A stretch of 30,056 nt of DNA from a virus (Duplodnaviria; Heunggongvirae; Uroviricota; Caudoviricetes). The notes under the pieces were generated by a model. The model searched no databases. It was not told the origin of the DNA and saw nothing but the letters and a program-made list of their open reading frames with translations. The stretch lies in IMG/VR virus record IMGVR_UViG_2778261301_000023; one strand, 5' to 3'. This document shows positions 1 to 30,056 of this stretch, piece after piece. The position numbers were made by a program, and so were the translations under genes. How positions within the stretch are numbered: position 1 is the stretch's first letter; each line of letters opens with the position of its first letter.

Positions 1-1035
1 ATGGAAGATGCAATTCAGGCCTATGAAATCAATGATATTGATGATATAGAAAATATTTTCGGACGAGTTATTTCAGGCGAAGAAATCCACATTGAAAATT
101 TGAAGTTAAACTTCTTAGAAAGTATTGATTTCAAATTTTTTGGTGATGAAGATAAGTATAATGGTACTCTGCCTGCAAGTTTGGCACAGGGTATCTGTGA
201 ATTTCAAACTGAGATGTACAAGGTTTTTACTCTAATCAAGTACAAAACCTCTAACTTACAGAAGCTCACTGCTGAGGATCGAGAAGCTGCAGAGTTGGTT
301 TTTACTATCAATCCTGGCTGCACAGAAATTATCACCTCAGTTAAAGAACTTATTGATTCCTTTGGTAACGCATTTGAGAAGGTAACACAAGGTATGAGCC
401 CAAGACAGAAAACAATGTGTTTCCTGTTTGCTGTCTTAGTTTTAGGCGGCGCATGGGTCGGTACGTCCTACTTAGATCATCAGACACAAGTCGAAACCAA
501 AACTATTGAGTTACAACTGGAAGAAGCAAAACAGCGAGCAGAATCCGAGCGGATGACAATTCTACGCGATGGTATGCTGTCTGCAATAAAAGCACATGAA
601 GGTATTGATACGATAGAGCGCGCCGAAGGTATCCAAGAGCACACAGCTAAGGCATACACTGGAGTTCTTAAAGGTGCATCTGATGCAGACAAAGTGACGA
701 TCCGCGGGGCCAGCAATATTGAGCTTTCGCAAGGTCAGGTTCAAGAAATCATCAAGAACCCAATTGAAAAGGCTAAGTCAGAGCAGCAAACATTGGAAGT
801 TGTCATTGATAGTATAAAACGCTCAGCCGATAAGCTAACGTTAAGCTGCCATGAGCCAACAGGTGATGATTCATTCCCGATCTATGTTGATACCAGTTTT
901 ATCAATGATCCTGATGAAATAGGCTTAATTTTTGACGCGATGAAAAATAATAAAACGGTCAACATCCTTGGTAGTTATAAGATTAGGTCTGGTGTGATAG
1001 AACAAGGTAACGCCTCTACAATCTCACCCCCTTGA
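1..1035 (+). CDS. Hypothetical protein, 344 aa, with one central hydrophobic helix (CFLFAVLVLGGAWVGTSY) followed by a charged coiled-coil-like region; AT-rich accessory gene
   Basis: Intact ORF starting with ATG at the window edge and ending with TGA at 1033-1035, followed by a hairpin. Composition is visibly more AT-rich than the phage structural genes. No recognisable catalytic motif. The true start could lie upstream of the window. Confidence 0.5.
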   Translation: MEDAIQAYEINDIDDIENIFGRVISGEEIHIENLKLNFLESIDFKFFGDEDKYNGTLPASLAQGICEFQTEMYKVFTLIKYKTSNLQKLTAEDREAAELVFTINPGCTEIITSVKELIDSFGNAFEKVTQGMSPRQKTMCFLFAVLVLGGAWVGTSYLDHQTQVETKTIELQLEEAKQRAESERMTILRDGMLSAIKAHEGIDTIERAEGIQEHTAKAYTGVLKGASDADKVTIRGASNIELSQGQVQEIIKNPIEKAKSEQQTLEVVIDSIKRSADKLTLSCHEPTGDDSFPIYVDTSFINDPDEIGLIFDAMKNNKTVNILGSYKIRSGVIEQGNASTISPP

Positions 1036-1040
1036 ACTTC

Positions 1041-1070
1041 AAACCGGCCAATGTGCCGGTTTGTTATTTC
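1041..1070 (+). terminator. Putative intrinsic terminator downstream of the first plus-strand ORF
   Basis: Stem aaaccggc (1041-1048) / gccggttt (1055-1062) with loop caatgt, followed by a T-rich tract (gttatttc). Confidence 0.45.
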
Positions 1071-1133
1071 ATTACAATCCCTCTTGGGTAACATTTTTAT
1101 ATAGATAACAGTCTTAATTTTTGGTAAGGCACC

Positions 1134-1892
1134 ATGCTCACAGAAAAACAGTTTTTTGAACTTATCAAAGCATTACAGTCATCTAATTTCTCAACCACAG
1201 AGATTTTAGGGTTGAGCTTCGCTATTATTATTGCAGCTCTCATAGTGAACTTTATTGTTTCTTTTATAACTGAAAAAGCAAAAATTTCTGCTACCAACGC
1301 TAACTATGAAATACTCAGAAAGCAGTTAGCATTAAATACAACAACTATCAAAGATATAGAAAAAAAGATTACTTCTGAGTTGTGGATTTCTCAACAAATC
1401 TGGCAAAAAAAGTACGATATGTATGAGTACATTTACACTCAGTTACTTAGTATAAAAAAATGGGCTGATAATGAATTTGAAATTATTGAGATTCACATGA
1501 TGCCAACATATGTAGCCAATAGTTATCAAGGATATTTTAATCAAGAACAAGAAAAGCAGTTTTGGGATGAAGTACAACAGGCTCACGAAGACCGTGATAA
1601 AGCACTAAACGATGAAGACCTTAAATTAAAAAATAAAGAGCTACAACAGAAACTTAGCCTAGCCTTCACAGCATTAACAGAGATGATGTTAACTAAAGCA
1701 GTCCTTCTTAATAAAGAAGTAACTGTTATTTTAAATGAATTAATTGAGAATATTGGTACAAATCCGTCCCCACAGGAATATGAAGAACCGGATGATTATG
1801 GATACAGAATCAAGGGGGCCATGGATAAAGCCTTAGAAAAAATAAGAATTAATGCTTTATCTGATTTAGAAATAAAAAATCCAGAATATTAA
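1134..1892 (+). CDS. Hypothetical membrane-anchored protein, 252 aa: N-terminal transmembrane helix (LGLSFAIIIAALIVNFIVSFI) and a long Lys/Glu/Gln-rich coiled-coil-like region; AT-rich accessory gene
   Basis: ATG at 1134 preceded by AAGG 5 nt upstream. Intact ORF, AT-rich. No recognisable enzymatic motif. Confidence 0.5.
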   Translation: MLTEKQFFELIKALQSSNFSTTEILGLSFAIIIAALIVNFIVSFITEKAKISATNANYEILRKQLALNTTTIKDIEKKITSELWISQQIWQKKYDMYEYIYTQLLSIKKWADNEFEIIEIHMMPTYVANSYQGYFNQEQEKQFWDEVQQAHEDRDKALNDEDLKLKNKELQQKLSLAFTALTEMMLTKAVLLNKEVTVILNELIENIGTNPSPQEYEEPDDYGYRIKGAMDKALEKIRINALSDLEIKNPEY

Positions 1893-7248: not shown

Positions 7249-8409
7249 TTATTCAACCTCTTCTAAACTGCTCACTCTGGACCCTCGGCGGAAATTATCA
7301 TCATTTTTAACATACTCGTATGAATCCAGAATCAAACCAGATATGCGAAGTATATCTTCCGGATTAGTTATATGTATCCTTTTACCATCCGTATCAAGTC
7401 GAGCTCGTCTTATTTCATTCAACTGAACTTCACTAAGCGAAATAGGTAAAGTTATAAATGAAGATTTTTTATCATAAAATCTTAACAGCCATCTATTAGT
7501 TTTACCATTCAATAGCACACCAAAATATGACTCAGTATCTTTATATTCTATATTATCTTCTGTTTGTATGATTTGTTTTACCCTTTCAAATAGCTCCAAT
7601 TCTTTGGCTGTGGTTATTATGTTGGGGTTTTCTTCATCAACAATGGCGTTATTAACTTGTGTATCCGTTGCATCATTTTCTTTAGTTTGCTCTACCGGTT
7701 GTGTAGATAGCCCGGAAACCACCATTGCGCTAACAGCGCGCTCAACGGCCTGTTTAACTAATGGAGTCACGAACTCAAGAAATCTCTGATTAAGTTGTCT
7801 CTCAATATTTGAACGACTAGCAACATATCGAACAAACTCCAGATCAACTTCACGAAGACTAGAACTGATTGTTTTAGTAAATGAATTCAAATAAACACTT
7901 TCTTCAGCCAGTGTCCGTAAAGCCTCTGGTTTGAATTTATCATAACGAAAACGAAATAATTGTGTAATATCGGAGTGAGTTAGAGAATCCATTCTTATTT
8001 TTAAAAACGGCGTTGAATCCATTATGTTTTTTTGTTTCAAATCCGTAAAAAAACGCCATTCAACACCATTTGTAATGGCTGATATAGTAACTTCCGGTGT
8101 TGAATTAAAATATCTTGATAGCTGTGGGCAGTGATTATCAATTTGTTCTGAAAACGATTTCGCCTCAATGAACATCACAGGAACATCATGACAAAATAAA
8201 GCGTAATCAACCCGTTCATTAGCCTTAACCCCGGGGAAGTCAGCACTATACTCAGCTTTGACTTTTCTTGGATCATACGGAGTAAAACCAAGAATATCTA
8301 GTAATGGCATAATGAGTGCTTGTTTTGTCGTTTCTTCAGTTGTACAAAACACCCCCATTTTTGCAACATGCTCTGTGTGTATTTTTAACTTATTTGCAAA
8401 ATTTTCCAT
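7249..8409 (-). CDS. Stand-alone PD-(D/E)xK nuclease of the type I restriction HsdR N-terminal (HsdR_N) kind with an uncharacterised C-terminal half; AT-rich cargo gene
   Basis: N-terminal region shows the HsdR_N-type pattern: TTEETTKQALIMPLLDILGF ... RVDYALF ... VMFIEAKSF, giving candidate D and E-x-K catalytic residues. The strong GGAGGAG site lies before the second ATG (8407-8409); the track ORF extends to 8424. The gene is strikingly more AT-rich than the flanking baseplate genes and has its own terminator. Confidence 0.6.
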   Translation of the reverse strand: MENFANKLKIHTEHVAKMGVFCTTEETTKQALIMPLLDILGFTPYDPRKVKAEYSADFPGVKANERVDYALFCHDVPVMFIEAKSFSEQIDNHCPQLSRYFNSTPEVTISAITNGVEWRFFTDLKQKNIMDSTPFLKIRMDSLTHSDITQLFRFRYDKFKPEALRTLAEESVYLNSFTKTISSSLREVDLEFVRYVASRSNIERQLNQRFLEFVTPLVKQAVERAVSAMVVSGLSTQPVEQTKENDATDTQVNNAIVDEENPNIITTAKELELFERVKQIIQTEDNIEYKDTESYFGVLLNGKTNRWLLRFYDKKSSFITLPISLSEVQLNEIRRARLDTDGKRIHITNPEDILRISGLILDSYEYVKNDDNFRRGSRVSSLEEVE

Positions 8410-8437
8410 GCTTGTCTCCTCCATGGTAACAATATGT

Positions 8438-21701: not shown

Positions 21702-22515
21702 GTTTGCCCTTCTCCGTTAAAAATTCGTCGGGTAGTTTCTGAGGGGCGTAGATCGGCAGAGCATCGCAACTGCAATAAACCTCCTCCCCGGCAGCAGTGA
21801 TTTCGTCATAAAAACCATATACGGGCTTAATAAGCCCCTGCTCCAGCGCCCACGAATCGCGGAGGAGATAAATTTTCTCGTCGCGCTCTTTGTGGTCCTG
21901 TCGGTATTTGTAGCCCGGACGCCGCCAGTTAGAATGCCAGCGCAGAGCAATCGCACCACTCTGAACAGCCAGCAGATACTTAACGTTGCTCGCCAGCTTA
22001 TGTCCCTGGTCAATTGCCACCCGGCGACTGATAAAATCCATATCCTTCACGGACTTCTGAAAACCGGACTTCACTTCCCGGCGATCAATTTCGCTCACCC
22101 CGTCAGGCGGAATGGACGTAACCCATCCCTGAAAACGCTGTATGGTTTTCTCGATAGCCTGTTCGCGGTTGAGTTTTATCAGGTTGGCACTGGCGAAAAT
22201 TCGCCTGTCGAGTTCCTTGCGAAACTCAGGTTTCAGTTTTTCAACAGTGATTTTTTTAGGGCCGTCAGGAGGCTGATCCCGTAATGCCCCGCCGTCGATG
22301 ACAAGACGGCTGTAGATAGCGGTGAGATGTTTTCTGGCTACGGTATCATCAGGGGTTTCTCGCTGAGCGGCTACACGGAGTTTCCGGCACCATTCGAGCA
22401 ATGATTTTTCGCTATCCCACCCGTGATTTACGTAGTAGTTAACGGCATCCGTCAGAACCTCATACAGCGTCCTGATCCGTTTCGTCTTCCTCCCCGCCCG
22501 GCTGGAAATTGCCAT
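21682..22515 (-). CDS. Head morphogenesis protein (Mu F-like position)
   Basis: Follows the portal gene. The track ORF (to 22653) overlaps the portal by 194 nt, so an internal start (MAISSRAGRK, about 22515) is more likely; the exact start is uncertain. Confidence 0.5.
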   Translation of the reverse strand: MAISSRAGRKTKRIRTLYEVLTDAVNYYVNHGWDSEKSLLEWCRKLRVAAQRETPDDTVARKHLTAIYSRLVIDGGALRDQPPDGPKKITVEKLKPEFRKELDRRIFASANLIKLNREQAIEKTIQRFQGWVTSIPPDGVSEIDRREVKSGFQKSVKDMDFISRRVAIDQGHKLASNVKYLLAVQSGAIALRWHSNWRRPGYKYRQDHKERDEKIYLLRDSWALEQGLIKPVYGFYDEITAAGEEVYCSCDALPIYAPQKLPDEFLTEKGKREFNRA

Positions 22516-23899
22516 CAGGCGTCTCCTGCTTCGGTGGTTCATAATTCGCCAGGGCGTCCACATCAATGATGAGTGGAGCTTCGCCATAGGTCTGCGTGGC
22601 ATTAACAAGGCTTGCCAGCCATTCAGTGACGGCGGCACGGTTTTCAGGATCAACCTGTAGCGACACGGCAGAGAAAAGTGCTATCGCCTGTTGAATCACT
22701 TTACTGTCGCTTTCCCGGCGTTTGTCCGGCGACTCCTCCACCAGCTCCTGCCACGTCGCGGTAAACTCGCGCCGCCACTGGTAAAACGTGGTTTTATAGT
22801 CCTCGGTTATGATGTCCGGGTAATCATTTTTCAGCGACTGATAAAATTCCTCGTTCCAGGCGATGTACTGCACCAGGCGTTCGAAATAATCCATCACAGG
22901 TTCAATCTGCTGGCGTACACCATCGATATACTGGCTGATGGCTTTCGAGTCCTCGGTTCCTTCACCGAAACCATTCGAGAAAGCCTCCTCCTTGATGAGA
23001 ATCGCGGGAACATCGCTACCTGATGCAATATCGGAAATAATGTTGTCGCGGGCGGCATTTAGCGCGCCATCGATGTTTTGTAAATTCAGCGAGGTAACGT
23101 CCTCATCCTTCCCGATACTAAGCACACCTTTATTTTTTGCCTCTTTGACATTTTCCCTTTTTCGTCCCGTGGCGGCAGCCATGATCCCGTCAAGTTTCGA
23201 ACCATACTGCACAACTTTAGCCACCAGCACGCCTGCCTTCTGGCTGACGAGATCATTCGCCTCCATCGTATTGATATAGGATTTCAGGGAATAAAGAACG
23301 CGCTGAAACACGCTTCGCCCGGTGAATCCGAACGATGAACTCTGAAACTCCAGATAAATCGGTGTGCCATTGAAAATTTTCAGTGTGCGTGACGGATGCC
23401 AGTCTTTTCCGCCAATCTTCAGCTTTTTATTGGCTTCCTGGAAAAACGGGCTGTTTGGGTTCTGGTCAGTCACCATCGAACCAGAAGCGTTCAACGGGTC
23501 CCACGCGTTGATATACACATCATCTTCTGTCAGTCCGAATGTCGGAAGCGGCTCACGACATGGAACACTGTCGGTGCCCACGCCGATCGCTGCGGCACCG
23601 TAGCAACGAGACAGAAAAAACAGATTTTTAATCTTCTCGTTAACCTTCATACGTTCCCATACCTCCTGGAAACGCCGCACAACCCGCTCGTCAGGGTCTG
23701 TCTCCACGTTGTACTGACGCGGCTTACACATCGCCATAAGTATGGGTTTTTCGACAAGTTTTCCGCCCAGAGGATGGAATTGCCACAGCTGCTTACACAA
23801 TTCATAGCCAATGTCGGTTCCCGGCTGAATTTCTTCAGCCTCAAGAATATGCATCAGTGCTGAACCGAGGCCGCCAGTAATCTCGATCTCTGCCATCAA
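22460..23899 (-). CDS. Portal protein, 479 aa
   Basis: Immediately downstream of the large terminase gene; size; acidic C-terminus. Confidence 0.6.
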   Translation of the reverse strand: MMAEIEITGGLGSALMHILEAEEIQPGTDIGYELCKQLWQFHPLGGKLVEKPILMAMCKPRQYNVETDPDERVVRRFQEVWERMKVNEKIKNLFFLSRCYGAAAIGVGTDSVPCREPLPTFGLTEDDVYINAWDPLNASGSMVTDQNPNSPFFQEANKKLKIGGKDWHPSRTLKIFNGTPIYLEFQSSSFGFTGRSVFQRVLYSLKSYINTMEANDLVSQKAGVLVAKVVQYGSKLDGIMAAATGRKRENVKEAKNKGVLSIGKDEDVTSLNLQNIDGALNAARDNIISDIASGSDVPAILIKEEAFSNGFGEGTEDSKAISQYIDGVRQQIEPVMDYFERLVQYIAWNEEFYQSLKNDYPDIITEDYKTTFYQWRREFTATWQELVEESPDKRRESDSKVIQQAIALFSAVSLQVDPENRAAVTEWLASLVNATQTYGEAPLIIDVDALANYEPPKQETPDGNFQPGGEEDETDQDAV

Positions 23900-23913: not shown

Positions 23914-25242
23914 TTACAACTCCGCGTAATTACCGTGCGCGATGATCAATCCATAGGTGTAACAATCGAAAAGGTCATCAGCACGTTTATGCGCGTCTTT
24001 ATCCGCCAGGTGGAATCCGGCGATTTGTTTTATGAGGTGGTTTGCGGTGGTGCGCTTGAATGAAACGGTCTTGTCGTAAGCCTCCCGGACGATTTTGCAC
24101 ATCCCCTGATAGTGGTAGCTGGATGCCATCACCGCCCGTTCGTCTTTGCCCTTGCTGGTTAGTGCCGATTTAATCGGCGTCATATCCCAGCCTTCGGTTT
24201 CCGCCTTCTGGTTGAGGATTGCCCCCATCGCGGCGTCTTCCATAAAAATTCCCTGGCTGCCCAGACGCGGACGGCATAATTTCGCGAGGCGCTCAAGGTT
24301 GTCATAAACGCCGGGGATATATTCAGGAAGCAATGACGCTTTAATTTGCGTAACATCCCAGTCAATAATCGTCAGTTTTGGCTCTTCCGAATACGTTGAC
24401 TCATAAGCGAAATACAACACGCCAGTACCATCATTTTCGGTCCCGCCTTTCAGCGCCGTATCCATCACTGCGAAAATCATGTCGCAGTACGGCGGCATCT
24501 CAATCGGCTGACCGTCCACCAGCAGCTTATCGACATCGAGTAACGCGTCTTTGGACCAGTCCACGAACTCGGCAAGATATTCCTGCTGCCAGACGCGCGG
24601 ATCGGATTTCTTCTCCGTTTCCTCCAGTTCTTCTTTCGGAATATACGGATTCGATGAAGTTGGCGCATGGTGCATGACAAATCCCAGGGATTCATCGTGG
24701 CATATCGCGTAGAAAAAATTGCTCTCGTCGATACCGTTTGGTGTGGAAAATACCCACGCACAGCCGCGGTAATCGACAAGCGTCGGGCGTATAGCTCGGG
24801 GCCAGATTTCCTCGAGCATTTCCGGCGATTTAGTGAATGCTGCCTCATCAATCAGCACAGCGTGATATTTACGCCCACGCCCGGCCAGTTTGTTATTGTC
24901 CGTTACCCAAAAGTCGATGCGCCCCCCATTACGGAGAATAATGCGCTTTTCATTTTTTGACTGGCTGAGGATCAGCGGTTGCAGAACGGCGCTAATTTCA
25001 TCCCAGATTTCCTGGTACTGGCGGTATTGTGCGGTAAAAATCCCCACCCTACCCGCGATAAGTTGCCCGGTGGTAGGAACGGCAAATTTCCGCGTAGCGA
25101 AACTGGTAGCGATGTTTACCAGCATCACCGTTTTACCCCAGCGACGACCACAGCATACCGCGTGGAAGCGTTCCTCTATTGCCGCCGTCCATGCAGCTAT
25201 TTGCCCCTCATGAGGTTTTGGGAGGTAGATTTCAATCGACAT
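23914..25242 (-). CDS. Terminase large subunit, 442 aa
   Basis: Walker A-like CCGRRWGKT and Walker B-like AVLIDEAA in the N-terminal ATPase region; nuclease-sized C-terminal half; position before the portal. Confidence 0.8.
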   Translation of the reverse strand: MSIEIYLPKPHEGQIAAWTAAIEERFHAVCCGRRWGKTVMLVNIATSFATRKFAVPTTGQLIAGRVGIFTAQYRQYQEIWDEISAVLQPLILSQSKNEKRIILRNGGRIDFWVTDNNKLAGRGRKYHAVLIDEAAFTKSPEMLEEIWPRAIRPTLVDYRGCAWVFSTPNGIDESNFFYAICHDESLGFVMHHAPTSSNPYIPKEELEETEKKSDPRVWQQEYLAEFVDWSKDALLDVDKLLVDGQPIEMPPYCDMIFAVMDTALKGGTENDGTGVLYFAYESTYSEEPKLTIIDWDVTQIKASLLPEYIPGVYDNLERLAKLCRPRLGSQGIFMEDAAMGAILNQKAETEGWDMTPIKSALTSKGKDERAVMASSYHYQGMCKIVREAYDKTVSFKRTTANHLIKQIAGFHLADKDAHKRADDLFDCYTYGLIIAHGNYAEL

Positions 25243-26323
25243 TATCCACTCCCGGCATCGGCAGAGAGTTGTGGATAATTATTTCGTTATTCTCACCACC
25301 CACGCCTTTTTTGAGGTTTTCAATCTCAGTGCGCAGCTTTTCGTTGCGAAGCCTCAGTCCTTCAAGCTCCAGATCATTGCGACTGTCAGTTGCACCACCA
25401 GCAGAACTTCCTTTCGTCGCCATTATCAGCTTGATAAGTTCGCGCCGGGCGGCAGCCTTATCCTCCAGCAGGATCTCAACACCAAATTTCCCGAGCTTTG
25501 CCCCTGCATATAATTGTCGCGCATCCCCATCAAGCAGAGTGGTATCAGCCATATAAAGCTGTCCCGTTCCCTCACCGCAGCACTTCGGACAATCCGGATT
25601 GGGTATGGCGTTATCAACAAAGCCGAGGCCTCCATATTCCGGCTCGGGTTTGCCATCTCTGGAGGCCTGTGCCGCTGCCTTATCGAATTCTGCAATATCA
25701 CGCCACTGGTAGAGATGATTCTCGCCCCAGCAATAACGGCAGTTAACACGGCGAAATTGTGCCAACTGATTGGGGTCGGCCTGGACAATAGCCATCAACT
25801 GACTCACCAGTAAATCCAGGTCTGCGGTATAGCGTTTCTGATACTGATTGCGGAAGTAGCTGATAGCACGATAAACCCTGGCATTTCTAAGCATACGGCT
25901 GGCGTTGCTGTTAGCTGTCGCACCTTGCCCCTCATAACCAGCCAGTCGGTATGCCTCTGTCGGCTTTTTCCCCTGAGCAACAAGCATCGCAAACTTAGCC
26001 TGCTGGTCAGAAATGCCGAATTCATCGGGGCAGAACGAAAATTCCTCCGCGTCGCCCTCATTCAGGCACGCATCGGATACTGGCTTTTTTTTCTGAGATT
26101 TTCCGTTCCGCTTTTGCGCAGTCTGCGCAGATTTTTTCTGCGCACTTTGTTGCGCAGTTTTGCGCATTTCTGTCTGCGCATTTTTCGGAGGTTTTTTGAT
26201 GTAACGACGGGCTGTTGCGTAATTCAGTCCCCTTGCCTCACACCATGCCACCGGAGATACACCGGAGCGGGTGTATTCAGCAATATATTCCTGCTGCAAC
26301 GCCCCCCAGTCCGGTCTGCTCAT
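25232..26323 (-). CDS. Terminase small subunit, 363 aa
   Basis: Immediately upstream of and overlapping the large subunit gene; N-terminal helix-turn-helix-like segment; basic repetitive linker; Cys cluster CPKCCGEG. Confidence 0.55.
   Translation of the reverse strand: MSRPDWGALQQEYIAEYTRSGVSPVAWCEARGLNYATARRYIKKPPKNAQTEMRKTAQQSAQKKSAQTAQKRNGKSQKKKPVSDACLNEGDAEEFSFCPDEFGISDQQAKFAMLVAQGKKPTEAYRLAGYEGQGATANSNASRMLRNARVYRAISYFRNQYQKRYTADLDLLVSQLMAIVQADPNQLAQFRRVNCRYCWGENHLYQWRDIAEFDKAAAQASRDGKPEPEYGGLGFVDNAIPNPDCPKCCGEGTGQLYMADTTLLDGDARQLYAGAKLGKFGVEILLEDKAAARRELIKLIMATKGSSAGGATDSRNDLELEGLRLRNEKLRTEIENLKKGVGGENNEIIIHNSLPMPGVDNVD
26115..26180. repeat. Array of six TGCGCA hexamers at 9-15 bp spacing inside the small terminase gene
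   Basis: TGCGCA at 26115, 26124, 26139, 26151, 26161 and 26175; includes the palindrome TCTGCGCAGA. Encodes the repeated peptide AQKKSAQTAQK. Confidence 0.5.
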
Positions 26324-26326
26324 TAG

Positions 26327-26578
26327 TTAGTCCTGATTTTTATCCACCCTGAGTAGTTCACGCAGGGCAAAGGCATCCCCTTTTCTGGCAAGCTTAAACA
26401 ATGCCGCCCGTAGTTCGGCTTCACCTTTCGCTCTGCCCTTACGGATGGATGCGTAAAAATCTGTCATTGCTTCCCGATTTTCTTTCAGTCGGTTCAGATC
26501 AACATCCAGAACGTCAGCGATTTGTTGTGCAGTCATCCGGCACGCTGCCAGAGACTCGGCTTTCGAATACGGAATCAT
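26327..26578 (-). CDS. Small hypothetical protein, possibly DNA-binding, 83 aa
   Basis: ATG at 26576-26578 with a G-rich ribosome-binding site. Overlaps the 3' end of the upstream gene; the start is uncertain. Confidence 0.35.
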   Translation of the reverse strand: MIPYSKAESLAACRMTAQQIADVLDVDLNRLKENREAMTDFYASIRKGRAKGEAELRAALFKLARKGDAFALRELLRVDKNQD

Positions 26579-27464
26579 TTGTCACCCCCATTGATATGCA
26601 GGGTGTCTTCTTCCTGTATTTTTCGTGAAGGATTTTTACTGCAGCGTTGTTCCAAGTGACCTGATGGTGAATGCGTTTATGGCTGGCCCCCATCAGTGAG
26701 ATTTTTACGCACGAGGGCGCATACATGACGGAGTAAAAACTTTTAACGTAGGTTCCGGAATCCAGATACAGCTCGGTCATTCCGCCGCTGTTTTTCTGCG
26801 TCTGTTTCTGCCCTAACTGGACAGCACCGATCGTCATAAACAATTCACCACAGCGACCGAGATTCGTGTACGTATTCACATCCTCGTTAATGCGCCCCAT
26901 GAATGAGAACGGTCGATCAACCGAACAGATAAAGCTGTTCATTGCCTTGCGTTTCACCCACGAAGCATGGCCGCCATTGTCACCAAGAAAATCCCCGCCC
27001 TGCGACATAGCGATGGAAAGCGCAGGTATTGATTCGTAGTACGCCAGCATTTCAGAAAGGATCGCATCCAGTTTTCTTATCGGGAAATAGGCCTGGTCAT
27101 AGTTGCGATCCACCCGAAACTGGAACTCGTGATAATCATCATCGAGCTGAATGAAGTATTTACACCCGACCAGTTTTGCCAGGTCGAAACAGGCATTACG
27201 GGCGTAAAAAATTGAGCGGCGATCACCGAAATTATCGGCTTCGTCAAAACGACTGGCTATATCGGCTTTGGAAAACACCAGCACCTGTTCACCAAATTCA
27301 ACTATGTACTGATGCCGTGTCTTATCTTCATCATCAACAACGATAAAAATTTTCCCGGTATAGCCAGCACGACGCAACGTCCGGTAAGTCAGAACTTTGT
27401 CCGGTCGCCCGTGAGTCAGAATAAAGGCGCAAAAATCATCACGCATATTCCTCCTCCCCGCCAT
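26514..27464 (-). CDS. Soluble family-2-like (GT-A fold) glycosyltransferase-like protein, 316 aa
   Basis: IFIVVDDEDKT and ARN..(about 14 residues)..YFIQLDDDY resemble the GT2 pattern (hhhVVDDxSxD ... ARNxG ... hhhLDxDD) as I recall it. No transmembrane segments. Coupled to the ParB-like gene. Confidence 0.4.
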   Translation of the reverse strand: MAGRRNMRDDFCAFILTHGRPDKVLTYRTLRRAGYTGKIFIVVDDEDKTRHQYIVEFGEQVLVFSKADIASRFDEADNFGDRRSIFYARNACFDLAKLVGCKYFIQLDDDYHEFQFRVDRNYDQAYFPIRKLDAILSEMLAYYESIPALSIAMSQGGDFLGDNGGHASWVKRKAMNSFICSVDRPFSFMGRINEDVNTYTNLGRCGELFMTIGAVQLGQKQTQKNSGGMTELYLDSGTYVKSFYSVMYAPSCVKISLMGASHKRIHHQVTWNNAAVKILHEKYRKKTPCISMGVTNDSVFESRVSGSVPDDCTTNR

Positions 27465-28227
27465 GCATGATCTCCACCATGTGCTGCGTCATCCGGACAA
27501 ATCCATTTTCAATAGCCTGCTGATAATCAATGATCACCAGCGCCGACTCCTCAAAAAGGCGCTGAATTTCAGCGGGGGCGTGAGCGTAATAATCCGCAAT
27601 TCTGCTGAAATTAAACACCGTGTGGCGTTCTGCCGCGCACAGGAGGAATTTTTCGATATCAGGCTCAAGGGACGCCGAACGTATCCGGCTGATCAGCTCC
27701 TGAGTTTTCGTATCGTCGTACAGTTCACTGATATCCGGTTTATCGCCCGACGGCTCATAAACAGGCGTATCAATTTTCGTCGTATACTGCTCCTCCTCAT
27801 TTCCGGTACCTGGCAAAACTTCCATCAACAGTTCATCAATTTCTGTTGGGCTGAATCCTGTCAGGGAGATATCAAAATCAGCATTGATTAGCTCCGACAG
27901 TTCCACCCGTAACAGTTCTTCATCCCAGCCAGCGTTGAGCGGCAGGCGATTATCTGCCAGGCGGTACGCCTTTTTCTGATCATCCGTCAGGCCAGACAGA
28001 ACAATGACCGGAACAGAATCCATTTTGAGCACCTCAGCCGCCATCACGCGACCGTGACCAGCAATAATTTCGCCCTTTTCGTCAATCAGCACCGGATTGG
28101 TCCAGCCGAATTGCTTAATGCTTTCTACCAGTTGTGCCACCTGCTCAGGGCTGTGTGTCCTGGCGTTGTGCGCATACGGAGACAGTTTTTGCAACGGGCG
28201 ATAGACGATCTTCAATTTCTCGCTCAT
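27439..28227 (-). CDS. ParB-like nuclease domain protein, 262 aa
   Basis: N-terminus (KLSPYAHNARTHSPEQVAQLVESIKQFGWTNPVLIDEKGEIIAGHGRVMAAEVL) matches the ParB N-terminal domain pattern; GAGG ribosome-binding site. Confidence 0.75.
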   Translation of the reverse strand: MSEKLKIVYRPLQKLSPYAHNARTHSPEQVAQLVESIKQFGWTNPVLIDEKGEIIAGHGRVMAAEVLKMDSVPVIVLSGLTDDQKKAYRLADNRLPLNAGWDEELLRVELSELINADFDISLTGFSPTEIDELLMEVLPGTGNEEEQYTTKIDTPVYEPSGDKPDISELYDDTKTQELISRIRSASLEPDIEKFLLCAAERHTVFNFSRIADYYAHAPAEIQRLFEESALVIIDYQQAIENGFVRMTQHMVEIMHGGEEEYA

Positions 28228-28350: not shown

Positions 28351-28647
28351 TTACTCAGTAACAACTGCGCCTTCCGGTAATTTCATACCGGCAAATACCG
28401 GACAACCAGGATGACAATCATCTTCTGTTGCTTCCAGCATTGACTCACCAAACCACTCCGTCGTGGCGCGACCATCAGCTGCTTTGTAGTGGATCAAGTA
28501 CTGGTTTTCGCCATCCGCATACTGCGCGCGGGCTTTAACCTCCCCCCATTCATCACTGATGCGCATCTCCACCAGTTGAGACAACTCAAACTTAAACGGA
28601 GCAGCATCAGCACCAATTACAATCGGTTTGTTTTTTGTTTTTTCCAT
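28351..28647 (-). CDS. Hypothetical protein, about 98 aa
   Basis: Start taken at the second ATG, which follows AGGAGA; no recognised motif. Confidence 0.4.
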   Translation of the reverse strand: MEKTKNKPIVIGADAAPFKFELSQLVEMRISDEWGEVKARAQYADGENQYLIHYKAADGRATTEWFGESMLEATEDDCHPGCPVFAGMKLPEGAVVTE

Positions 28648-28785
28648 CATCGTCTCCTGATATCGAAGCCCGCCGCCGCACCGGGCGCTGATCAACATTT
28701 GAGTATTCGCAGCGAAAGAAAGAATTTATTTTATTGAGTAGCCACAAACACAGAATTTCGTGCTTTCCAGACGATGGCGCATCCT

Positions 28786-29004
28786 TCATTTTTCAGCAAA
28801 ATATTCTGCTCTTACAGGCGATAAGTTCTGCAGACACTGCCGAACACCGTCAACAATTTCGCAGACCTGAGAAGCCGTATCGAAAAGCTGGCGCGCCTTA
28901 TCCAGGCTAACGCATCCCACCAGGAAAAAAGGCACCAGTATCGCTACCAGTGCCCATTTCGCCGCCGTTCGCGGCATTCTGTGTGTCCAGTGTTTTCTGC
29001 TCAT
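28786..29004 (-). CDS. Small lipoprotein (possible outer-membrane spanin or exclusion lipoprotein)
   Basis: Signal-peptide-like segment ending in the lipobox LVGC; short mature part; sits directly after the endolysin gene. The start is taken at the internal Met (MSRK). Confidence 0.4.
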   Translation of the reverse strand: MSRKHWTHRMPRTAAKWALVAILVPFFLVGCVSLDKARQLFDTASQVCEIVDGVRQCLQNLSPVRAEYFAEK

Positions 29005-29018
29005 AACACACCTGGTTA

Positions 29019-29402
29019 TCAGCGTTTCAACTGAAAGTGAGGCCCGTCTTTCAGTGTTTTCCAGTCCCCGCCCCATTCGATGGCAGTTCCCAGCTCTGCG
29101 GCAGCCTTCTTAAATGCCTGCGCGATTTTCTCGTACAGAGGCCAGTCCCATGACACCTGGCTGCCAACCCAGGCAACAACATCCACCGCATCACCGGTCA
29201 GGTGGCGGCTGTTCATGGTCTGGCTTTTCCCTTCCGCGACCAGCTGTTTCTGGCGTTCTTTCGTGCGCAGCCCTTCCGTAATACCGAAATCAACCTCCGT
29301 CAGCTCCAGCGCACGGCGAACGACAGCAACCAGCTGTGGTTTAACGCCCTCCAGATTTTTTTCACTGCGACGGCTGAATCTGAATTTACCCGACATATTC
29401 AC
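29019..29402 (-). CDS. Endolysin, peptidase M15 (L-alanyl-D-glutamate peptidase / VanY-like) type, 127 aa
   Basis: Small protein with His/Asp motifs (SRHLTGDAVDV ... GGDW ... GPHF) typical of M15 endolysins; sits between holin-like and lipoprotein genes. Confidence 0.7.
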   Translation of the reverse strand: MNMSGKFRFSRRSEKNLEGVKPQLVAVVRRALELTEVDFGITEGLRTKERQKQLVAEGKSQTMNSRHLTGDAVDVVAWVGSQVSWDWPLYEKIAQAFKKAAAELGTAIEWGGDWKTLKDGPHFQLKR

Positions 29403-29674
29403 CTCAACAATGGAAAGATTTTTGTGACGTTCCCGCGTGCGCGTATCACCAGCACGCAGAACAGCAGGTTAAAAAACACTTCCAGCCAGCCCGTTGCTAA
29501 CGGGCGACCACACAGATAGCTGAGGGGCGCAAAGGCATACAGCAGCATCAGCAGCCACGCCAGCCATGACATCAGCGGTTTATGTCTGGAATCACGGCGA
29601 CGATAAAAAAAGAGCGTCAGCACGATAACCGTGCATAACGCTACATTCAGCAATCCGGGAAGGTTACTTAACAT
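29399..29674 (-). CDS. Small membrane protein, holin/antiholin-like (two predicted transmembrane helices)
   Basis: Hydrophobic segments LLNVALCTVIVLTLFF and WLAWLLMLLYAFAPL; overlaps the endolysin start. The start is taken at MLSNLPG. Confidence 0.4.
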   Translation of the reverse strand: MLSNLPGLLNVALCTVIVLTLFFYRRRDSRHKPLMSWLAWLLMLLYAFAPLSYLCGRPLATGWLEVFFNLLFCVLVIRARGNVTKIFPLLR

Positions 29675-30056
29675 TGCCGCCTCCTCCACCCCGCAGACGG
29701 GAGAACAGGCCGGACACAAGTGATGCAATATCCTGCTGGTGGATGAACGAGAGAATCTTCACCGACACCACTGACACCAGCACTGCACACAGTGCGTCGA
29801 CAGGCGCACCGTCAAACCCTGTATGCTTTACCAGCCAGGATGCCAGAACCTCTGCGCCCAGCACGCCGATAATGAACGACACCAGAAAATGCGCCGCCAC
29901 ACGCCAGGCTGAAAGCGCCTGCGGCATCGTTGCCACAAATAACGCCCCGGCGAACGCACCAAACACAATCCCGAAATCCGTTCCGGTAAACAGCCCGAAT
30001 ACCGTCGCCCCGCCGAGCGCCACAGCCGTACCGGAACCGGATAAGGGTTCAGACAT
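29664..30056 (-). CDS. Putative holin (multi-pass small membrane protein), 130 aa
   Basis: ATG at the window end; several Gly/Ala-rich hydrophobic helices; first gene of the lysis cluster. Confidence 0.5.
   Translation of the reverse strand: MSEPLSGSGTAVALGGATVFGLFTGTDFGIVFGAFAGALFVATMPQALSAWRVAAHFLVSFIIGVLGAEVLASWLVKHTGFDGAPVDALCAVLVSVVSVKILSFIHQQDIASLVSGLFSRLRGGGGGNVK

Follow-up and report, generated by a model that had tools for sequence, protein, structure and literature searches.

A TAGT-family glycosyltransferase and its co-conserved ParB-domain partner beside viral terminase genes: a candidate DNA glycosylation module

What does a soluble glycosyltransferase (GT) do when it is encoded directly behind a ParB-domain protein and just ahead of the terminase genes of a virus, and on which molecule does it act? 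This question is raised by the IMG/VR record IMGVR_UViG_2778261301_000023 (Duplodnaviria; Heunggongvirae; Uroviricota; Caudoviricetes), a stretch of 30,056 nucleotides (nt) which was analysed at its full length and is referred to here as the window. At positions 26327-28227 its minus strand codes for a 262-amino acid (aa) ParB-domain protein, called the partner in the following, for the GT (a 316-aa open reading frame, ORF) and for an 83-aa ORF, after which come TerS and TerL; a preliminary description of this DNA had placed the pair in this region, just upstream of the terminase, and the sequence confirms it. The present analysis suggests that the pair could be a two-subunit, late-expressed DNA glycosylation module whose acceptor is neither 5-hydroxymethylcytosine (5hmC) nor 5-hydroxymethyluracil (5hmU). 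This reading is tentative and its probability is put at about 40%.

The GT ORF occupies 26514-27464 on the minus strand and its 310-aa product is encoded by 26514-27446; residue numbers of the GT refer to the 310-aa protein. The protein matches the Pfam family PF20691, TAGT ('TET-associated glycosyltransferase'), which was reportedly defined by Iyer et al. in 2013 in Nucleic Acids Research, over profile positions 4-205 of 205 (119.5 bits, cut-off 27.5, E 2.4e-34). PF20691 is carried by all homologues among the matches listed. PHROG 842, which bears the name of a T2/T6 enzyme considered below, is matched at E 2e-102, and the NCBI name for the window's GT is 'GREB1-related protein'. In an alignment of 55 homologues D41 (in VVDDEDKT) is invariant and D102-D104 (in LDDDY) are at least 90% conserved, so that the GT-A motifs pointed out in the preliminary description are genuine; R14, R83, G151/D152, R166-K167, N187/D189 and R258/H260/H261 are likewise conserved. 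The protein shows the GT-A fold, the DxD site and the R...DDD...ED[Y/F] signature, with R14, D102-104 and E188-D189-V190. Among predicted viral structures its best matches are TAGT-domain phage proteins (TM-score 0.85-0.87, normalised to target length), and a lower match is a protein of Klebsiella phage PKO111 that is named beta-glucosyl-HMC-alpha-glucosyl-transferase (Foldseek E 2e-8). No membrane segment was found in the GT, the maximum Kyte-Doolittle mean over 19 residues being 1.08.

As judged from sequence, the GT is thus a soluble GT-A glycosyltransferase of the TAGT/JGT/GREB1-like family. The protein had been called GT2-like; the glycosyltransferase assignment, of GT-A type, holds good, but the family is PF20691 and not GT2. 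The view that it is soluble and unlike GtrB was right. A GT2/GtrB identity was rejected because PF20691 is the sole Pfam match, with none to PF00535, there is no membrane segment, and the neighbours are the partner and terminase genes and not gtrA or gtrC, as would go with a serotype-conversion enzyme. It was also observed that residues ~283-310 (window 26514-26578) make up an Escherichia-type C-terminal extension of ~28 residues with low model confidence; it is absent in homologues of ~288 aa, and the DNA that encodes it shares 65 nt with the beginning of the 83-aa ORF.

The GT gene is closely joined to that of its partner. The true start is probably Met7 of the ORF (ATG, 27446-27444), which is used by the Prokaryotic Genome Annotation Pipeline (PGAP) and by database clusters to give the 310-aa protein, and a GGGGAGGAGG box lies at 27459-27450, four bases upstream. 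The stop codon of the partner, TGA at 27441-27439, overlaps this ATG by 8 nt, as ATGCGTGA, and the whole junction of ribosome-binding site, GT start and partner stop lies within 27439-27459. An overlap of 1-20 nt was found in 98 of 107 related loci, most commonly of 8 nt (55 loci) or 11 nt (30 loci). The overlap, its conservation and the ribosome-binding site bear out the proposal that the two genes are translationally coupled.

The partner (27439-28227, minus strand) begins with a ParB/Srx N-terminal domain, the N module (residues 1-137, 27817-28227). The ParB domain assigned to it earlier was recovered by Pfam ParB_N (PF02195; E 1.3e-6, a marginal 28.8 bits against a cut-off of 26.3), and PHROG 620 is matched over the full length (E 8e-88). 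N21-x-R23, G57-x-x-R60 and D91-N92 are conserved in 38 homologues and are followed by a WD...LTGF...EID linker; these are putative nucleotide-binding motifs of the ParB/Srx superfamily, while 'ParB-like nuclease' is an annotation name only. The partner resembles partition ParB (Spo0J) in its N-terminal ParB/Srx domain with GxxR and in a weak similarity to Spo0J structures (1vz0, E 1.7e-4). It differs in being acidic and in having no detected central helix-turn-helix or C-terminal dimerisation domain, and no ParA gene that could act with a parS site was found in the prophage. With neither helix-turn-helix nor ParA, and with a score below the NCBIfam cut-off, a partition ParB identity was rejected. 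The N module is closer to phage ParB-DNA methyltransferase fusions, matching PHROG 498 at E 2e-51 and PADLOC MTase_II at E 5e-38, and its homology to them covers residues 1-141 with up to 57% identity. A tblastn search with the module gave 407 phage records, and the nearest non-orthologues, 46-57% identical, are annotated DNA (adenine) methyltransferases. It had been supposed that the ParB module is of a kind attached to DNA-modifying enzymes, and these relatives agree with that. However, the PHROG 498 and MTase_II matches end at residues ~141-146 of the partner and no methyltransferase domain follows. The effector is instead a small new domain, not an enzyme, which travels with a separate GT gene.

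It is this C-terminal domain that is co-conserved with the GT, and not the ParB domain as the preliminary description had implied; the best-conserved stretch of the partner is residues ~146-255. Its linear tail (residues ~146-170, EQYTTKIDTPVYEPSGDKPDISELY, 27718-27792) has the motif K-Y-T-x-K-I-x-x-P-x-Y-E-P-K-x-x-K-P, is strongly conserved in 38 diverse loci and holds two tyrosines, Y148 and Y157, which are invariant in a 52-sequence alignment. The tail has low predicted local distance difference test (pLDDT) values and no predicted secondary structure. The helical part that follows (residues ~171-262, 27442-27717) is more conserved than the tail, with the motifs FLxxAAxRHTVF, IADYYAHA, EESALVIID and AIENGF and the invariant polar residues R201, H202, D212, Y214, E226, S228 and D234. 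The models therefore suggest a disordered tail with two invariant tyrosines joined to a helical bundle. The domain also occurs alone: marine phage contigs, IMG/VR loci and Vibrio phage pv27 encode proteins of 127-153 aa that consist of nothing else and whose genes immediately precede TAGT genes. Because it exists alone in this position, the conserved core of the system is the C-terminal domain together with the GT, and the ParB module is frequent but optional. In a 99.9% identical genome PGAP calls the partner gene a truncated pseudogene, 'ynaK, missing C-terminus' (locus L001, 21644-21901, equal to window 27970-28227), although the 262-aa ORF is in fact intact. The remnant in the K-12 Rac prophage appears to have been the reference for this call, and the new domain is therefore hidden in many annotations.

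How constant is the pairing? GT relatives were collected from species-representative genomes, IMG/VR, GenBank phages and metagenome contigs, with a few more loci found through the partner protein, and many of the 110 loci are near-identical E. coli prophages. In 107 of the 110 the GT gene is accompanied by that of a partner homologue in the same orientation, which in nearly every case comes immediately before it, so that the pair is indeed conserved as a unit. Of the three others, two are contigs cut at the GT and one, from Aeromonas phage Aeh1, holds a distant homologue. Among the 38 loci with a GT less than 70% identical to that of the window, the only recurring clusters were the partner (37), the GT (37) and the large terminase (21). 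The pair was found in Lactobacillus phage phi jlb1 and, as ORF1 and ORF2, the first genes after cos, in the cos-type Lactobacillus phage c5. It also occurs in Nocardia phage NTR1 (Orf1 and Orf2, directly before TerL), in Porphyromonas phages with a GT of just 27% identity, in 191-kb Vibrio phages and in the haloarchaeal virus HHTV-2 (genes 21 and 22). The hosts thus belong to Proteobacteria, Firmicutes, Actinobacteria, Bacteroidota and haloarchaea. Between the E. coli prophage, the Lactobacillus and Nocardia phages and the haloarchaeal virus the GT is 39-48% identical. The acceptor must therefore exist in all of these hosts. Envelope polymers are thereby ruled out, and the candidates left are ordinary nucleic acid and the partner protein. 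The pair sits just upstream of terminase genes in the loci inspected, and it keeps this place before at least four unrelated terminase types (Terminase_6N, as here, Terminase_3, GpA and HK97-like TerL_ATPase). Several phages of Lactobacillus delbrueckii (phiLdb, LL-Ku, Ld17 and Ld25A) have a truncated or split GT; its function is therefore accessory, as would be expected of a counter-defence modification. Within E. coli the region 26327-28227 is 99.9% identical to a Rac-like prophage with intR, xisR, recE, recT and kilR. Of 5426 complete E. coli genomes, 1566 (29%) contain this 1.9-kb region at least in part, and 867 of these contain 80% of it or more. Laboratory strains such as E. coli W are among the carriers of the module, and the intact pair is also found in Rac-like prophages of strains 042 and APEC O1.

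The partner is variable at its N-terminus. Of 37 partners that have a short N-terminal leader in place of the ParB module, 22 start with M-K-Q-x-x-L-F (for example QVTLF, QFNLF, QTLLF, QLTMF). As a pattern match, this fits QL[SD]LF, which we take to be the consensus of bacterial sliding-clamp (beta-clamp)-binding peptides. Judged by sequence, both alternative add-ons, the ParB module and the peptide, point to DNA. Relatives of the GT have add-ons as well. A class-I S-adenosylmethionine (SAM) methyltransferase is fused to the GT or sits between GT and partner, and other GTs are fused to a carbohydrate-type sulfotransferase, to a P-loop kinase-like domain or to a second TAGT domain. By analogy this looks like glycan tailoring and parallels phage DNA-glycan gene clusters. 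The P-loop kinase-like domain was considered as a substitute for the ParB module and rejected, as one contig (L104) has both; in the same contig, whose GT carries the kinase-like domain at its N-terminus, a radical-SAM gene (80-1042) lies directly upstream of the ParB-like gene.

The most unusual feature of the pair is that no source of hydroxymethylated bases goes with it. An association with TET/JBP or another 5-hydroxymethylpyrimidine source, as the family name would lead one to expect, was not seen. The annotation of the matching prophage (locus L001, up to the integrase gene) lists no TET/JBP, thymidylate-synthase-like or DNA methyltransferase gene, and no hydroxymethyl-source domain was found in the larger ORFs of the window. 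Within 6 kb of the pair, TET/JBP, hydroxymethylase or DNA methyltransferase genes did not recur among the 38 diverse loci; one marine contig (L099/L100) has a C5 DNA methylase ~0.9 kb downstream, without TET. The complete 31.8-kb genome of phage c5 (50 ORFs) has no nucleotide-metabolism genes, and Pfam finds nothing relevant in its unnamed ORFs. In all phage DNA glycosylation known to us, the sugar goes onto a hydroxylated pyrimidine that is supplied by a dedicated enzyme, for example a dCMP/dUMP hydroxymethylase, a 5-hydroxy-dCMP synthase, or a methyltransferase together with TET. The characterised DNA-acting family members that were found all need a hydroxyl on the modified base or on a sugar attached to DNA.

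Comparison with these members shows how far the present clade has departed from them. The beta-glucosyl-HMC-alpha-glucosyltransferase of T2/T6 belongs to PF20691, like the GT, and adds a second glucose to alpha-glucosyl-5hmC in DNA, as stated in two papers of 2026 (PMC13216743, PMC13390438). The PKO111 homologue of that name is the structural match given above, and a T4-like Aeromonas clade shares R14, R83, D102-103, D189, G221-222, K235 and H260-261 with the GT. On the other hand, the identity of the GT is only ~13% with the PKO111 protein and 22-26% with members of the Aeromonas clade. The T-even enzymes belong to phages whose own DNA contains 5hmC, and they are not accompanied by a ParB-like or C-terminal-domain partner: in the distant T4-like Aeromonas phage TAGT clade, used as control, a partner was found within 8 kb in none of 25 loci. 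The clade of the window, in contrast, has no 5hmC source and has motifs of its own, QGGD149-152 and RKAMN166-170. It was also seen that the T4-like clade has its own small accessory domain (W..MPEF...KTKSIW.P; L127 7917-8213, L129 7733-8002, L102 3689-4030). This domain is fused to the GT in Aeh1 and is a separate, overlapping upstream ORF in metagenomic relatives, which parallels the arrangement of the partner. A PxYEPK look-alike in the N-terminal extension of the Aeh1 GT was rejected as a counterpart of the partner's tail, because relatives have MPEF there and the tyrosine is not conserved.

A second group of known systems consists of phage gene clusters reconstituted by Pyle et al., where 5hmC is produced by a C5-methyltransferase together with a TET-like dioxygenase and then receives glycans from GT-A or GT-B enzymes (bioRxiv 10.1101/2023.12.21.572611). 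According to that preprint, its GT-A enzymes are similar to trypanosome JGT and have an R...DDD...EDY/F signature in common, and 'ParB-like proteins' are listed among the neighbours of such GTs without analysis. These TET/5mYOX- and C5-methyltransferase-associated enzymes and JGT are like the GT in fold, in active-site signature and in having tailoring enzymes nearby. They are unlike it in depending on a methyltransferase and a dioxygenase that make 5hmC (or 5hmU), none of which was found here, in the 38 diverse loci or in the whole c5 genome, and the obligate C-terminal-domain partner does not appear in the parts of the preprint that were searched. A third relative, human GREB1, O-GlcNAcylates a protein, and its GT domain is related to those of TAGT and JGT (PMC7968844). 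It is likened to the GT through the NCBI name and this paper, and it is a 1949-aa multidomain eukaryotic protein that acts on oestrogen receptor alpha (ER-alpha).

On the reading of the pair as a DNA glycosylation module, the 310-aa protein would be the catalytic GT-A subunit, binding metal and nucleotide-sugar through its DxD site. The 262-aa protein would be an obligate accessory subunit whose new C-terminal domain binds the enzyme, and its ParB/Srx N module, as in phage DNA methyltransferases, would bring the complex to DNA. The complex, made late in infection alongside the packaging machinery, would attach a sugar to the DNA of the progeny phage ahead of packaging or while it takes place, and this sugar could plausibly protect the DNA from restriction in the next host. 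We infer the physical complex, the DNA target, the expression timing and the anti-restriction role. Because PF20691 already holds DNA glycosyltransferases, a DNA glycosylation module is a family-level expectation and not an exotic guess. As these phages have no means of producing 5hmC or 5hmU, ordinary DNA itself would have to offer the acceptor, which could be a canonical base, the end of a DNA molecule or a mark made by the host. A narrower proposal is that DNA glycosylation independent of any hydroxymethylase is carried out here, an enzyme of the TAGT clade, guided by an adaptor with either a ParB/Srx module or a clamp-binding-like peptide, placing sugar on ordinary phage DNA (base or end) at packaging. 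We consider this specific form doubtful. The adaptor model draws on the DNA record of the family, the methyltransferase-type N module, the clamp-binding-like peptide and the fixed place before four unrelated terminase types. The obligate pairing, the tailoring-type fusions of relatives, the basic GT (pI 8.0) and the lack of a sigma-70-like promoter between the lysis genes and the pair also speak for the DNA-module reading. For the T4 alpha-GT, an action in concert with the replisome has been proposed (PMC13216743).

Several points weigh against the DNA-module reading. The lack of any supplier of hydroxylated bases with the pair is one of them, and canonical DNA offers no good hydroxyl, which is a chemical weakness. 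We know of no precedent for a glycosylation of canonical DNA. An acidic protein (isoelectric point, pI, 4.6; median of the C-terminal domain family 5.1), the partner is unlike a usual DNA-binding subunit. The ParB module is dispensable in some lineages, and the partner of Vibrio phage pv27 has neither this module nor M-K-Q-x-x-L-F. No partner-GT fusion is found among the matches listed, though other fusions exist. No report of DNA modification in any pair-carrying phage was found in the literature searched, and the fold can act on proteins, as GREB1 shows (PMC7968844).

The last point leads to the idea that the partner is itself the substrate. The GT would O-glycosylate the conserved disordered tail at Y148, Y157 or T149, some lineages would then methylate, sulfate or phosphorylate the sugar or extend it, and the glycoprotein, tethered through the ParB module or the clamp-binding-like peptide, would act at phage DNA or the replisome. 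Apart from DNA, nothing but the C-terminal domain of the partner accompanies the GT in all host phyla, and the two invariant tyrosines lie within the predicted disordered segment of this domain. Hydroxyl amino acids are ordinary acceptors of GT-A enzymes; no hydroxymethylase would therefore be needed, which would explain the lack of TET/JBP. Strict pairing would likewise be explained, a missing fusion would fit a separate enzyme and substrate, and an acidic tail facing a basic enzyme (GT pI 8.0, family median 8.6) could mimic DNA. A protein O-GlcNAc transferase, GREB1, is moreover known in the same superfamily (PMC7968844). However, the strong conservation of the helical domain and its invariant polar residues exceed what an acceptor peptide needs, and the DNA-type add-ons, with an N module of DNA methyltransferase type, are left unexplained. 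The characterised members that were found other than GREB1, namely the T2/T6 enzyme and JGT, act on DNA, and no role of a glycosylated ParB-like protein is known in phages. Overall, glycosylation of the partner is the main rival of the DNA-module reading, but seems to us rather unlikely.

Two further readings fit the distribution poorly. One is that the GT modifies an envelope glycoconjugate (compare the prophage enzyme TarP and teichoic acid), RNA, a nucleotide or a signalling molecule, as a lysogenic-conversion or anti-defence gene in a variable slot. In lambdoid phages accessory genes are known to sit between the lysis and terminase genes, and the decay of the GT in the L. delbrueckii phages indicates that it is dispensable. 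But GTs of 39-48% identity serve Gram-negative, Gram-positive, actinobacterial and haloarchaeal hosts whose envelopes have no common acceptor, and the pair is also found in the cos-type phage c5 and the 191-kb Vibrio phages. The GT has no match among the PADLOC defence families, and an obligate partner with a DNA-enzyme module would go unexplained, so that this reading is improbable. The other is that the prophage GT adds or extends sugars on the 5hmC of invading phages such as the T-evens, as a defence against superinfection, for which the phage would no longer need a hydroxymethylase of its own. Family members do act on 5hmC or glucosyl-5hmC DNA (PMC13216743, PMC13390438), and hypermodification of invaders by prophage GTs is an idea raised in the preprint of Pyle et al. 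(bioRxiv 10.1101/2023.12.21.572611). The genes, however, lie within the late lysis-packaging block without a promoter-like site of their own (no sigma-70-like promoter between the lysis genes and the pair was given by a promoter scan, itself weak evidence). The pair is kept in phage genomes that are not prophages and in an archaeal virus, and its fixed place beside terminase suggests a role in the phage's own DNA. Defence against superinfection is thus the least credible of the readings and highly improbable.

The surroundings of the pair should be described here. All genes of the lysis-packaging part of the window are on the minus strand, and they follow in the order of transcription. Two holin-like ORFs (29664-30056, which runs into the window end, and 29399-29728), an M15 endolysin (29019-29402) and an Rz-like ORF (28786-29076) come first. 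Between the lysis genes and the partner gene lies a gene for a conserved 115-aa protein of unknown function (28351-28698; PHROG 1935, E 1e-59), found in some related E. coli prophages only. After the pair, the 83-aa basic ORF (26327-26578) overlaps the 3' end of the GT by 65 nt. It matches PHROG 309, TerS, at profile positions 145-218 (E 2e-22), is found downstream of the GT in enterobacterial loci at 48-99% identity and was not detected in distant loci. It resembles part of some small terminase subunits and is probably related to packaging and not a component of the GT module. TerS (25232-26323) and TerL (23914-25242) match Pfam Terminase_2 and Terminase_6N and PHROG 51 and PHROG 2. The following 479-aa protein (22460-23899; L001 16133-17569) is called 'anti-CBASS protein Acb1 family protein' by PGAP, whereas it matches Pfam Phage_portal_3 (E 1e-12). 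The gene is at the portal position, directly after TerL, and the Acb1 name is probably misleading.

Some other features were observed in the window and in related loci. Inside the TerS gene, at 26115-26180, there are six TGCGCA palindromes in 66 bp, as against 14 across the whole 30-kb window, spaced 9-15 bp apart within an A-rich stretch; they could be a pac or TerS recognition site or a by-product of repeated Ala-Gln codons (TAQ/SAQ). Among the baseplate and tail genes, a 391-aa protein (7249-8424, minus strand) has an HSDR_N domain, the N-terminal nuclease-type domain of type I restriction R subunits (E 6e-14). It is named 'type I restriction endonuclease' by PGAP, and its gene, which sits within the structural module, is possibly an accessory gene or one for defence. 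At 1-1892 (plus strand) two ORFs of 344 and 252 aa, on the strand opposite to the others, have a GC content of 0.34-0.40 compared with ~0.5 elsewhere and no Pfam match; they have the appearance of foreign cargo, situated where the prophage has its tail-fibre end. In a metagenomic phage with the ParB-GT pair, the gene for the major capsid protein is succeeded by an uninterrupted row of four GT2-family genes (L109 17837-20316, L110 8659-11138); they may be a separate virion-glycosylation cluster.

The protein family has a name already, and a ParB-like neighbourhood is mentioned in passing in the preprint of Pyle et al. In the literature searched there was no description of an obligate coupling to the present domain, though the 2013 TAGT paper may note a link to ParB. 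Nor did that literature describe the hydroxymethylase independence of this clade or its spread from E. coli to a haloarchaeal virus. The clade has kept the catalytic core of a DNA glycosyltransferase, lost the supplier of hydroxyl groups and gained an obligate, undescribed partner domain. The pair is present in cultured phages which have natural GT-defective relatives, so the question is readily testable. If the partner is the substrate, the pair would be a counterpart in viruses of bacteria and archaea of GREB1-type protein glycosylation. If ordinary DNA is glycosylated, this would be new DNA chemistry, with a bearing on restriction evasion, sequencing artefacts and enzyme tools. A system independent of hydroxymethylase would then be an undescribed kind of DNA modification, shared by temperate and lytic phages from E. 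coli to haloarchaea.

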